In this document: one piece after another, positions 18,380-20,124 of the stretch | Numbering within the stretch: position 1 is the first letter of the stretch | Layout of the letters: each line of letters starts with the position of its first letter | Sequence record: SRR31156797_2770 | Direction: 5' to 3' (one strand) | DNA length: 20,342 bases | Notes under the pieces: model-generated | What the model was told of the DNA's origin: nothing | What the model saw: the letters and a program-made list of their open reading frames with translations, nothing else | Databases searched by the model: none | Position numbers and translations under genes: made by a program

Positions 18380-18467
18380 TGCGTTTTACTTCTCCCCTCC
18401 TTTGATGATCAATGACTGGACCTTACCTTGGAACCGGTTCTTTTTTAGCGAATAGAAATAATGGAGC

Positions 18468-18545
18468 AAAAAAAGAAGACCAAAGCAAAAAAGTGTACAA
18501 CCCAAGAAACTTTGGGTAATCAATGCACTTTTTTCCTCTGGTCTT
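18468..18545 (-). terminator. Conditional terminator t1 upstream of licT
   Basis: AAGACCAGAG-GAAAAAAGTG...ACCCAA-agtttc-TTGGGT...CACTTTTTT-GCTTTGGTCTT-C-T7. Confidence 0.85.
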
Positions 18546-18568
18546 GCCTGCCGAACAGTAACGAATCC
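18540..18568 (-). promoter_or_regulatory. RAT upstream of licT
   Basis: GGATTCGTTACTGTTCGGCAGGCAAGACC; 27/29 identical to the downstream RAT and overlapping terminator t1. Confidence 0.92.
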
Positions 18569-18602
18569 AGTAATGAGAACACTCTCGTGTTCCGTTGAGA
18601 TA

Positions 18603-18631
18603 ATAGTACTCATTCTGAGAAAAAATGTCAA
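18603..18631 (-). promoter_or_regulatory. Sigma-A promoter of the licT-bglP-GH1 operon
   Basis: TTGACA-N17-TACTAT with an A-rich UP region upstream. Confidence 0.85.
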
Positions 18632-18654: not shown

Positions 18655-18766
18655 TTTTTTTGTTTTTGACTTTTTTTCACTATCTTTCTCACTGAATTTC
18701 TTTTCTAGCTTTGGTCTTTTAGTTCACTTGAAATACAAGGTTTACTGTGTAGCACAATAAGACCAC

Positions 18767-18796
18767 AAAAAAACCGTAATCTTCGTGCATTACGGT
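18767..18796 (-). terminator. Intrinsic terminator ending the rgg-divergent transcript
   Basis: Minus strand ACCGTAAT-gcacgaag-ATTACGGT followed by a T-tract (7 T in total). Confidence 0.85.
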
Positions 18797-19107
18797 CATA
18801 GCTGGAAGTATGATGCTTGAAAGACGATCAATCACAAAGAATCAGAAAATTGGGGAAGGTCTGGTGCATGACAGACATTCAACGGGACTGACCACCTTGC
18901 GCGATTCATGCGTTTCATGACTTCCACAAACGAAAAGGTCTCTTTGAGTGGGGGAATCAACCAAATAACCTTTCGATTCTTCAAGATCTTCTCTTTCCTG
19001 CTTAGAATGTTCGCAGTTCGCCGCGAAAAAAGCAGAACGTAAACTAAATTTCATTTATCAATCTGTCACTGATCCTTCAATGACAAGTATCTAAATGAAA
19101 GCCTGTA
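18767..19107 (-). ncRNA. Putative structured non-coding 3' region or sRNA of the rgg-divergent transcript
   Basis: No ORF with a convincing SD. Several nested inverted repeats, two UUCCCC motifs, and a terminator at the end. Confidence 0.45.
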
Positions 19108-19158
19108 CTAGTTTTTAAATGGGTTGATTTCCCAAGGACCAAATGGTTCAAATTCCAT
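19108..19158 (-). CDS. 16-aa peptide MEFEPFGPWEINPFKN divergent from rgg (candidate signalling peptide)
   Basis: SD AAAGGAGGT (19167-19175) 8 nt before the ATG, TATAAT at 19193-19198, TAG at 19108-19110. Below the ORF-track length cutoff. Confidence 0.7.
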   Translation of the reverse strand: MEFEPFGPWEINPFKN

Positions 19159-19180
19159 GAAAAACGACCTCCTTTATTAT

Positions 19181-19209
19181 TTGCTATACCCTATTATATT
19201 TGATAACAT
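19181..19209 (+). promoter_or_regulatory. Putative rgg promoter overlapping the divergent peptide promoter
   Basis: TTGCTA-N17-TAACAT. Confidence 0.45.
19193..19198 (-). promoter_or_regulatory. -10 box of the peptide/sRNA promoter (no consensus -35)
   Basis: TATAAT on the minus strand; the hexamer 17 bp upstream is GATTTT. Confidence 0.65.
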
Positions 19210-19260
19210 GTTATTAAAATCACATTGTTCAGAAATGCGTCACAATTAAGGAGGTCCCCC

Positions 19261-20124
19261 ATGAAACAGCAAGGCTCTTTAATCAAAAAACTGCGCACAG
19301 ATCGCAAAATCTCGCAAGCCAAGCTTGCCGAAGGTATTTCCTCTCGCACCACCCTTTCTTCTTTCGAAAATCGCAAAACAAATCTCTCTTCACAAACCTT
19401 GTTTGACTACTTAGACAAAATGAATATCACGGTTCATGAGTTCAGTCTGTTGATCGACAGCGAAGCCACAGGACAGAAACGTCAGCTGGTGCAAGATTTC
19501 TATACCCGATACTATGATCGAACACTGACTATCGACTACTTGACTAGCCTTGAGGAACGCTACTTTGAGACACAAAATTTTTTTTATTATTCTTTGTATG
19601 TCCAAGGCCTGCTGCTGCTCAACCGTGAATCATTTCTGATGAATCGAGGAGCTTACACCCAAGAAGTTGAACTGGTAAAGCAATACTTGTTTGATATCGA
19701 AACCTGGGGGCGCTTTGAGTTGAACTTATTCTCAAATTTGTTATTTATTTTCGACCAAGAAACCATCAGTTACTATTTAGATCATGGGATCAAAAAAATT
19801 CTTCGCTATGCCAATGATCCCTTTTATGCAAATCTGTTAAGTGTTGTGATCTTAAATGGCTGCGCCTTTGCCAGTGAAAGTAAGGATTCCTATCTGCTTA
19901 ACAAGTTTCTGCTTTTGTCTCATCCCTTGCCTAATACACCTCTGTATTTTTATTTGAAAATCCATCAAGTCTTGTATCAAGAAATTTACTCCTATTTGCA
20001 ATCTTCTCAATTAAACAAAGAAGTGTTAAGAAACAGCTTAATCGTTATCGAACAAGCCGGTTACCAGAACCATAAAAATGACCTGCAAAACTTGATTCAT
20101 ACCGTGACGAATATCTCCATTTAA
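19261..20124 (+). CDS. Rgg/GadR/MutR-family (RRNPP) transcriptional regulator
   Basis: 287 aa from ATG 19261 (SD AAGGAGGT). XRE HTH (GSLIKKLRTDRKISQAKLAEGISSRTTLSSFEN) and the Rgg signature YLFDIETWGRFELNLFSN. Confidence 0.9.
   Translation: MKQQGSLIKKLRTDRKISQAKLAEGISSRTTLSSFENRKTNLSSQTLFDYLDKMNITVHEFSLLIDSEATGQKRQLVQDFYTRYYDRTLTIDYLTSLEERYFETQNFFYYSLYVQGLLLLNRESFLMNRGAYTQEVELVKQYLFDIETWGRFELNLFSNLLFIFDQETISYYLDHGIKKILRYANDPFYANLLSVVILNGCAFASESKDSYLLNKFLLLSHPLPNTPLYFYLKIHQVLYQEIYSYLQSSQLNKEVLRNSLIVIEQAGYQNHKNDLQNLIHTVTNISI

Follow-up and report, generated by a model that had tools for sequence, protein, structure and literature searches.

A candidate dual-function RNA transcribed divergently from an rgg gene in enterococci of the casseliflavus/innesii group

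Gene Organization of the rgg Cassette

The DNA considered here is a stretch of 20,342 nucleotides (record SRR31156797_2770; hereafter, the window) from an Enterococcus of the casseliflavus/innesii group. Toward one end it carries rgg, a gene for an Rgg-family regulator, and on the minus strand a divergent unit; the two make up a cassette of ~1.5 kb with two transcription units, which, in a few Enterococcus species of this group, is flanked by an oppA-like gene on one side and the bgl operon on the other. From 5′ to 3′, the minus-strand unit consists of an Rgg-box-like motif, a −10 hexamer, a Shine-Dalgarno sequence with a 16-codon open reading frame (ORF), a variable linker, a non-coding domain of ~190 nt (the 3′ domain), and a terminator (Table 1). 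A preliminary description, made from the sequence of the window, had proposed that this unit is expressed as a dual-function RNA, at once the mRNA of a peptide and a trans-acting regulator, and had pointed out that the unit contains no gene for a protein effector. The latter is borne out, as no such gene is present within the whole cassette (rgg and the unit). The former is, tentatively, the best single explanation of the data described below.

The cassette stretch is present in three of the eight species genomes of the genus. In two genomes without it, G002 and G005, the oppA-like gene and its terminator are followed directly by the bgl promoter, and homology to the window picks up again at position 18659 (G002) and 18653 (G005). 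Because the oppA-like gene runs straight into the bgl promoter in these genomes, rgg and the peptide/RNA unit are, on the comparison of the sequences, an insertion/deletion unit of ~1.5 kb. A plasmid origin found no support among 72,556 plasmid records, none of which matched. The oppA-like gene, encoding an oligopeptide-binding protein (L013:8-1186), converges on rgg, and its end reaches the window at ~20290 on the minus strand. Since this gene also occurs in species without the cassette, at 80% identity, its adjacency to rgg may be incidental.

The rgg product has the receptor architecture of Rgg/RRNPP systems: the Pfam families Rgg_C (E = 7.3e-13; 49 bits, with the cut-off at 27) and HTH_3 (E = 2.2e-8) are both found. 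Orthologues with 92–99% identity exist in three species of the genus, and the named ones are those of E. innesii (93%) and E. casseliflavus (92%).

Table 1. Features of the cassette in the window, with identities between the gallinarum/innesii-type and casseliflavus-type clades.
Feature	Position	Strand	Identity between clades	Remarks
rgg	19261..20124	+	75% at fourfold-degenerate sites	287-aa Rgg-family regulator; Pfam HTH_3 and Rgg_C
Rgg-box-like motif GACGCATTTCTGAACA	19226..19241	−		~27 nt upstream of the −10; putative operator of the peptide promoter
−10 hexamer TATAAT	19193..19198	−		read from the sequence; invariant in 10/10 sequences
Promoter and Shine-Dalgarno			99/101	
16-codon ORF MEFEPFGPWEINPFKN	19108..19158	−	49/51; both changes synonymous	Shine-Dalgarno AAAGGAGG at 19168-19175; putative pheromone precursor
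Linker after the stop codon	18987..19107	−	50-51/122 (~41%)	
3′ domain	18798..18986	−		hairpin 1, outer stem, long helix and inner hairpin; conserved, predicted to be structured and non-coding
3′ domain and terminator			196-202/226-227 (87-89%)	
Hairpin 1	18979-18928	−		helix 18979-18968/18939-18928 and 18965-18961/18947-18943; loop UUGAUUCCCCCAC; RNAalifold
C-rich motif 1, UUCCCCC	18950..18956	−		apical loop of hairpin 1; invariant in 10/10 sequences
Outer stem UGGAAG/CUUCCA	18926-18921/18808-18803	−		RNAalifold
Long helix	18898-18883/18836-18821	−		extended by 18880-18877/18842-18839; RNAalifold
Inner hairpin	18876-18872/18863-18859	−		RNAalifold
C-rich motif 2, CUUCCCC	18852..18858	−		internal loop of the long-helix domain; invariant in 10/10 sequences
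Intrinsic terminator	18765..18797	−		9-bp stem, 8-nt loop, 7-U run; hairpin 18797-18772; terminator scan; stem invariant
DNA after the terminator			24-28/67-68 (36-41%)	

The Promoter and the Peptide ORF

The unit was compared among 10 distinct sequences that fall into two clades, the gallinarum/innesii type and the casseliflavus type, with strain variants supplied by seven metagenome loci. The Rgg-box-like motif is invariant in all 10 of these orthologous sequences, and of 30 loci of Rgg relatives, 13 have its core GACGCATTT at a distance of 11–61 nt from the start codon of the regulator gene. The carrier genomes G001, G003, and G008 each have one exact copy of the box; near-matches are no commoner than those of a reversed control in G001 and G003, giving no sign of extra boxes there, and the excess of near-matches in G008 was dismissed as a repeated unrelated sequence. 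The −10 hexamer had been noticed in the preliminary description and is indeed read at the same place. A sigma-70 scan called no complete promoter for the unit and none for rgg, and the weak −35 of the unit fits, as a sequence feature, an activator-dependent promoter. Between the box motif and the −10, there is also a perfect 12-nt palindrome, ATAACATGTTAT (19203-19214, minus strand), invariant in 10/10 sequences, which could be a second operator.

The ORF that had been described as a 16-mer with a good Shine-Dalgarno sequence was found in full behind AAAGGAGG. Across the 10 sequences it has two substitutions, both synonymous (TTT/TTC and GGT/GGC), and no nonsynonymous one, a pattern of codon changes that shows purifying selection on the ORF; promoter, Shine-Dalgarno, and ORF together are 96–100% identical across the two clades. 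Moreover, the reading of the ORF as a real signaling-peptide gene is supported by divergent short ORFs with a W-E-[IVL] core, which adjoin Rgg relatives in nine loci besides the three orthologues. The transcript thus very probably encodes a genuine signaling peptide.

These nine loci (L019, L020, L022, L025, L028, L029, L036, L038, and L040) belong to several genera of Enterococcaceae, and their short ORFs, for example MYPNSPWEVEVF, MNPYTWEIEPPQKIEK, and MFDFFEEKIWEVVPPQ, are preceded by good Shine-Dalgarno sites. Rgg relatives as a whole (E <= 1e-20) are encoded in 43 of 134 genomes of the family. By their sequences, the W-E-[IVL] peptides look like a distinct pheromone code, and no description of such a peptide family was found in the literature searched. 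There is a different arrangement at another locus, L023 (G075:C2): a 14-codon ORF, MKDTERDYWLIEAQ, on the divergent side is followed by a 180-aa ORF on the same strand, beyond which comes an ORF containing CxxxCxxC. As this motif is typical of radical-SAM enzymes, the arrangement looks like a cluster for a ribosomally synthesized and post-translationally modified peptide (RiPP) under the control of an Rgg.

Conservation and Coding Potential of the 3′ Domain

The conservation of the unit between the clades is markedly uneven (Table 1). Downstream of the ORF, the linker has diverged strongly between the two clades, conservation returns over the 3′ domain and the terminator, and it is lost again immediately thereafter. 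At the sequence level, the 3′ domain is more conserved than silent sites, and it is flanked by two essentially unalignable stretches.

It is concluded from several lines of sequence evidence that the 3′ domain is non-coding. Nonsynonymous changes of codons are more numerous than synonymous ones in each of the six frames, all of which contain at least one stop. One candidate, a 70-aa ORF (18842-19054), has lost its start codon and N-terminal half in the casseliflavus clade, and 15 codons of its frame change the residue while two do not. A search of 5.8 billion proteins with this ORF retrieved only two near-identical clusters of similar length and nothing beyond the group. The sole longer protein, P0003 (245 aa, from the Logan source), was set aside, for its sequence is that of casseliflavus-type DNA with two stops translated as W, an artefact of gene calling with a different genetic code. 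A 50-aa ORF was rejected as well, having a TGA inside in most relatives, and no Pfam family matched the readings of the 3′ region. The preliminary description had named a decayed protein gene or a conserved translated ORF among the findings that would speak against an RNA; neither the frames nor the protein search gave a coding signature.

A second small protein might nevertheless be encoded here, either by a 16-codon ORF on the sense strand, MSVMHQTFPNFLILCD, which the alignment, inspected by eye, shows to be open in eight of nine sequences, or by an ORF on the plus strand, MMLERRSITKNQ, whose frame is kept across a 3-nt insertion in three of four casseliflavus-type sequences. Neither ORF has a conserved Shine-Dalgarno sequence, however: in the casseliflavus clade, AAAGCGG replaces the AAGGUGG found upstream of the sense ORF. 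The DNA needed for a plus-strand promoter is not conserved, either. An 8-nt deletion in one strain truncates the sense ORF and abolishes the plus-strand ORF. Together with the excess of nonsynonymous changes in every frame, these observations make a second small protein very improbable. The deletion itself, in the E. casseliflavus-type locus L014, corresponds to window positions 18843-18850 and takes away one copy of a tandem ATTCTTTG repeat that other casseliflavus-type sequences have; the deletion lies in the predicted internal loop beside C-rich motif 2.

Predicted Secondary Structure of the RNA

A consensus fold was obtained with RNAalifold from nine sequences and consists of 62 pairs, that is, 558 pair cells. 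All of the 558 cells hold standard pairs, with one compensatory pair and seven further pair types; seven pairs vary and none is broken. Variable columns are correspondingly fewer among the paired positions (8/124) than among the unpaired ones (23/99). The casseliflavus substitutions in the long helix are taken up as wobbles and one double change from G-C to A-U, found in four of the nine sequences.

The structure drawn by eye in the preliminary description overlaps with this fold in part. Its first hairpin (18931-18940/18967-18975), with a C-rich apical loop, is reproduced, both arms being contained in hairpin 1. Of its nested domain, closed by 18915-18926/18803-18813, the outer stem at 18926-18921/18808-18803 reappears in the RNAalifold fold. 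The helix 18902-18907/18839-18844 is invariant and so gains no support from the comparison, and two of its partners are lost in the strain with the 8-nt deletion. The innermost helix (18891-18898/18856-18865) is contradicted by the comparison, since two of its eight pairs are broken in four of nine sequences, those of the casseliflavus clade, with no compensatory change, and the hand-drawn structure as a whole shows none. The long helix, which RNAalifold forms in its stead, accommodates these substitutions and is the better fit.

The full 420-nt RNA folds with z = −2.97, and none of 100 shuffles folds as well. For the 3′ domain on the sense strand, z is −2.02 in the window (6/200 shuffles as good) and −3.82 in a casseliflavus-type sequence (0/200), vs. 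−0.06 on the opposite strand (85/200). In these models, the foldability of the 3′ domain is specific to the transcribed strand. Taken with the absence of coding signatures and the conservation, this makes it fairly likely that the 3′ domain has been selected as an RNA.

Transcription and Termination of the Unit

Eighteen RNA-labeled sequencing runs contain the stretch, all as assembled contigs, and four of them (X1, X3, X4, and X18) were examined. In X18, a 369-nt contig with a depth of 13.9 spans exactly 18800-19168, with bins of zero depth on either side of it (18702-18768 and 19171-19237). The rgg contigs of this run are separate, at depths of 4.0–4.3, and its assembly is broken gene by gene. 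This is the pattern expected from a discrete transcript over the ORF and the 3′ domain, and the unit is probably transcribed. The other three runs were not used as evidence for transcription: their contigs (6.8 kb, 81 kb, and 956 nt) bridge genes and intergenic DNA and may be DNA-derived. For the ~420-nt transcript divergent from rgg that had been proposed, both the −10 and the terminator are present and a contig co-extensive with the unit exists, this contig being strandless. The terminator had been placed at 18767-18796, and a terminator-like hairpin followed by a U-run is indeed found there, ~340 nt past the peptide ORF.

Downstream of the unit and also on the minus strand, there is a sigma-70-type promoter (18631-18603; TTGACA, a 17-nt spacer, and TACTAT), a leader, and the licT-bglP operon. 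The leader (window 18464-18631) gave sub-threshold matches to SpF43_sRNA (23.6 bits vs. 70) and bglG-cis-reg (19 bits vs. 80), and is probably, judging from these matches, a LicT-responsive leader with a ribonucleic antiterminator (RAT). As the unit and this operon share their orientation, and as the architecture recalls that of prgQ on plasmid pCF10, it is conceivable that the 3′ domain and its terminator form a conditional terminator, which lets Rgg-driven transcription enter the bgl operon in the manner of prgQ/IRS1. This is hardly to be expected. The bgl operon is equipped with a promoter, a RAT-like leader, and a terminator of its own, and operon and promoter are present in species without the cassette; furthermore, the terminator of the unit, with nine pairs and a run of seven U, is invariant, and the depth of run X18 falls to zero at 18702-18768, just beyond it.

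C-Rich Motifs and a Proposed Circuit

The 3′ domain contains two C-rich motifs (Table 1), the second of which had been noticed in the preliminary description at the position where it was found. Both motifs are unpaired in the RNAalifold consensus structure. In full-length partition-function folds, the probability of being unpaired is 0.73–0.82 for motif 1 in 8 of 11 sequences and 0.54–0.99 for motif 2. The hexamer TTCCCC as such is not enriched on the two strands of the 20-kb window (nine found vs. 8.4 expected), and two of the nine copies fall within the 220-nt stretch of the 3′ domain.

The following circuit may be proposed, with the cassette as a self-contained system of peptide quorum sensing. 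Rgg, together with the mature form of the 16-residue peptide, would bind the GACGCATTT box just upstream of the weak −35 and drive a transcript of ~420 nt, from roughly 19186 to 18767. The 5′ fifth of this transcript would be the pheromone mRNA, and the 3′ half would be a folded non-coding domain ending in the terminator, most likely a riboregulator. Pairing with the G-rich ribosome-binding sites of unlinked mRNAs would fall most plausibly to the invariant YUUCCCC motifs, so that the output of the circuit would be an RNA in the manner of RNAIII. For Rgg dependence, peptide processing, and action in trans, we only infer. Thus, the dual-function reading stands with regard to a bounded unit, a conserved ORF, a structured non-coding 3′ part, and two invariant C-rich motifs predicted to be single-stranded, and the support that had been drawn from the missing effector gene is weakened (see below). 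That the RNA regulates through an anti-Shine-Dalgarno mechanism in trans is doubtful, and the same caution applies to the cassette as a system in which the RNA is the effector and uses its two invariant C-rich loops to silence genes at other places in the genome through their G-rich ribosome-binding sites.

Observations against a Trans-Acting RNA and Alternative Explanations

A number of observations weigh against the circuit proposed above, and the first of them concerns the relatives. Among 10 peptide-bearing loci examined for downstream genes (the nine W-E-[IVL] loci and L023), six have units without a same-strand downstream ORF of at least 90 aa, two of these six having only a mechanical ORF of 64 or 82 aa. 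Effector-less units are common in this Rgg clade, and therefore a missing effector is in itself no sign that the output is an RNA, and the argument built on it is a weak one. Three relatives' units, when their sequences were read, end at a terminator straight after the peptide, without a long tail, and elsewhere the peptides of relatives are followed by genes for secreted proteins or by a radical-SAM-like gene. As far as these sequences go, the conserved tail is peculiar to the cassette of the window among the relatives.

The distribution is narrow as well. In BLASTN searches of the 134 family genomes, the 3′ domain was full-length in only three, as a single copy per genome, and the remaining five matches were fragments of 22–28 nt. 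A covariance model built from the 3′ domain (R1) recovered the same 3/134 genomes; its further matches (E = 0.03, 0.06, and 0.8) were dismissed because they resemble an unrelated terminator-type hairpin. The loci of Rgg relatives L016-L022 gave no match to R1 (best E = 0.036 with filters off).

The structural evidence has its own limits. As the 10 distinct sequences fall into two clades, the compensatory change is, on this alignment, a single evolutionary event; the consensus structure comes from the same alignment, and the program rewards compatible columns. Tests of predicted structure on two lineages are thus supportive rather than decisive. Among the checks that the preliminary description had suggested, the alignment yielded a conserved RNAalifold structure with one compensatory pair, and the Rfam search yielded no family: when 4227 Rfam families were searched with cmscan at E <= 10, there were eight matches, none near its gathering score and none sensible in the unit, where those to mir-743, CRISPR-DR47, and MESTIT1_3 were regarded as noise. 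The support for transcription is an assembled contig of run X18, which carries neither strand nor ends nor Rgg dependence.

Conservation may also be inflated. Between the window and the E. innesii type (L015), the fourfold sites of rgg are 61.5% identical, and the peptide/RNA unit (18767-19260) is 94–100% identical. Such mosaic divergence implies, from the sequences compared, recombination with a breakpoint near the rgg start, and recent gene flow could raise the apparent conservation of the unit. One of the two sequence types has probably been shaped in this way, and because of this the argument from conservation is real, not overwhelming. It might even be that conservation is due to recent gene flow altogether, and that the 3′ region is a roleless leftover, possibly the remains of a lost downstream gene. 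This would agree with the contrast just mentioned (38% of rgg fourfold sites differ, vs. 0–6% in the RNA unit) and with the cassette being an insertion/deletion unit present in 3/8 species of the genus. It does not account for the comparison between the gallinarum and casseliflavus types, in which the 3′ domain is 87–89% identical between stretches of 36–42% and above the rgg fourfold sites at 75%, nor for the fact that variation avoids paired columns and that pairs are kept where they are hit. Since foldability is strand-specific and no protein relative was found for any reading of the region, a roleless 3′ region is regarded as improbable.

Searches for targets were negative. Complements of the C-rich motifs are frequent in G001, G003, and G008, yet only 1.5–2 times as frequent as in a reversed-pattern control, and no specific or conserved target emerged; such a modest excess is as expected for a purine-rich, Shine-Dalgarno-like sequence. 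Nine of the best sites among several hundred were inspected, and most of these nine were judged by eye from the flanking sequence to be coding. The ribosome-binding site of an amidase gene was considered as a target and rejected, for its G-run is not kept and becomes GGAGG in E. innesii. Among ribosome-binding sites in the window, none stands out, the best duplex having −13.8 kcal/mol against a background 5th percentile of −15.4. No antisense stretch in the window exceeds 12 nt. Furthermore, motif 1 has a probability of being unpaired of only 0.06 in the window-type variant (3/11 sequences). In this variant, loop 1, GGUUGAUUCCC (18951-18961), is nearly complementary to the W-E-I-N codons of the peptide ORF, GGGAAAUCAACC (19122-19133), both on the minus strand, and this pairing is weaker in the other variants; in the model, translation could free loop 1 from the peptide codons.

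The main rival explanation, then, is that the 3′ domain is a cis-acting 3′ untranslated region (UTR), a structured element that governs how stable the pheromone mRNA is or how it is processed or translated, for example by blocking an exonuclease or folding back on the 5′ region, with the peptide as the sole output. Besides the failure of the searches for trans targets and the pairing of loop 1 with the peptide codons, it can draw on the Shine-Dalgarno region, which is largely paired in the full-length folds (unpaired probability 0.17–0.36), and on a linker stem-loop (19087-19062) that lies 21 nt past the stop codon. The latter has 10–11 bp in the same columns in both clades and 93.2% of its cells paired; four pairs differ between the clades and all stay paired, one by a double change. 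Likewise, the relatives without a downstream ORF suggest that autoinduction alone can be the local output. On the other hand, relatives do without a long tail, having a terminator immediately behind the peptide, the sequence variants are not alike in their long-range pairings with the 5′ region, and ~190 nt with invariant single-stranded motifs exceeds what a protective 3′ hairpin needs. A purely cis-acting 3′ UTR appears rather unlikely on balance.

Comparison with Known Systems

RNAIII of Staphylococcus aureus is the agr P3 transcript and encodes delta-haemolysin. The unit described here resembles it as a transcript linked to quorum sensing, in which a short ORF is combined with a large structured non-coding part, and in the unpaired C-rich motifs proposed to meet G-rich ribosome-binding sites. 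It differs in several points: there is no homology in sequence or structure (no meaningful match in Rfam at E <= 10), a cytoplasmic Rgg/RRNPP receptor takes the place of the Agr two-component system, the peptide is a presumed signal instead of a toxin, and the RNA is ~420 nt long and confined to three species. The small RNAs of Firmicutes with C-rich motifs, such as RsaE/RoxS, use unpaired C runs in loops to target G-rich Shine-Dalgarno regions. Short C runs predicted to be unpaired in loops are shared with the unit, whereas its motifs are located in the 3′ extension of a peptide mRNA and not in a stand-alone small RNA of ~100 nt, and no Rfam family was matched.

Another comparison is offered by prgQ on plasmid pCF10 from Enterococcus faecalis, which is divergent from prgX and gives the Qs/QL RNA with the iCF10 ORF, an RNA that acts in the circuit. 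Both systems have an enterococcal RRNPP-type regulator beside a divergent promoter, and a transcript of a few hundred nucleotides that begins with a peptide ORF and ends at a terminator. Unlike prgQ, the unit is chromosomal, with no match in the plasmid collection, its regulator is an Rgg (with the Rgg_C domain) and not PrgX, and no dedicated operon follows its terminator, since bgl has its own promoter and leader and occurs without the cassette in G002 and G005. Nor was any sign found, though no search was aimed at it, of an antisense RNA that starts at the regulator's promoter and overlaps the unit.

The locus is also similar to Rgg systems with short hydrophobic peptides (Rgg/SHP) and to RopB-type systems with leaderless communication peptides (LCPs): it has an Rgg receptor and a divergent short ORF with a good Shine-Dalgarno sequence, no signal peptide, and a conserved promoter motif. 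According to the study on LCPs, most putative LCPs are of 8–10 residues and highly hydrophobic, unlike the peptide of the unit with its 16 residues, charged and proline residues, and W-E-I core; the E. casseliflavus systems listed there are different loci, with peptides of their own and receptors of 282 and 291 aa (PMC10518010). The peptide strings of the unit had no match in the part of the RRNPP_Detector supplement that was available, which says little as these passages contain no peptide sequences. Annotated small RNA loci of pneumococci proved to hold translated small ORFs, with two quorum-sensing small ORFs reported separately, and the authors raise a dual role as a possibility, the RNA part having no demonstrated regulatory role in that study (PMC9426450). 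In the window, by comparison, the non-coding part exceeds the ORF in size and is conserved in its own right.

Implications for Rgg Signaling

Rgg/RRNPP circuits are known for turning on protein operons beside them, among which are operons for proteases, for RiPP pathways, and for competence. While the known Rgg systems drive adjacent protein operons, the unit in the window has a long non-coding tail: within the self-contained cassette, only a peptide ORF and a conserved folded RNA are wired to the Rgg promoter. No riboregulator driven by an Rgg or another RRNPP regulator was found in the open-access full texts searched. If the RNA does regulate other genes, peptide signaling through cytoplasmic receptors would join the Agr/RNAIII theme of quorum sensing with dual-function RNAs, and the cassette would be the first RNAIII-like output described in that literature for RRNPP/Rgg quorum sensing, packaged as a mobile module of 1.5 kb. 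With a single regulator, a single promoter, and a single RNA, it would moreover serve as a small and manageable model. A tail acting in cis alone would nonetheless tune the production of the pheromone in an unusual way. In either case, the W-E-[IVL] peptides beside enterococcal Rgg relatives are a lead on signaling codes outside streptococci.

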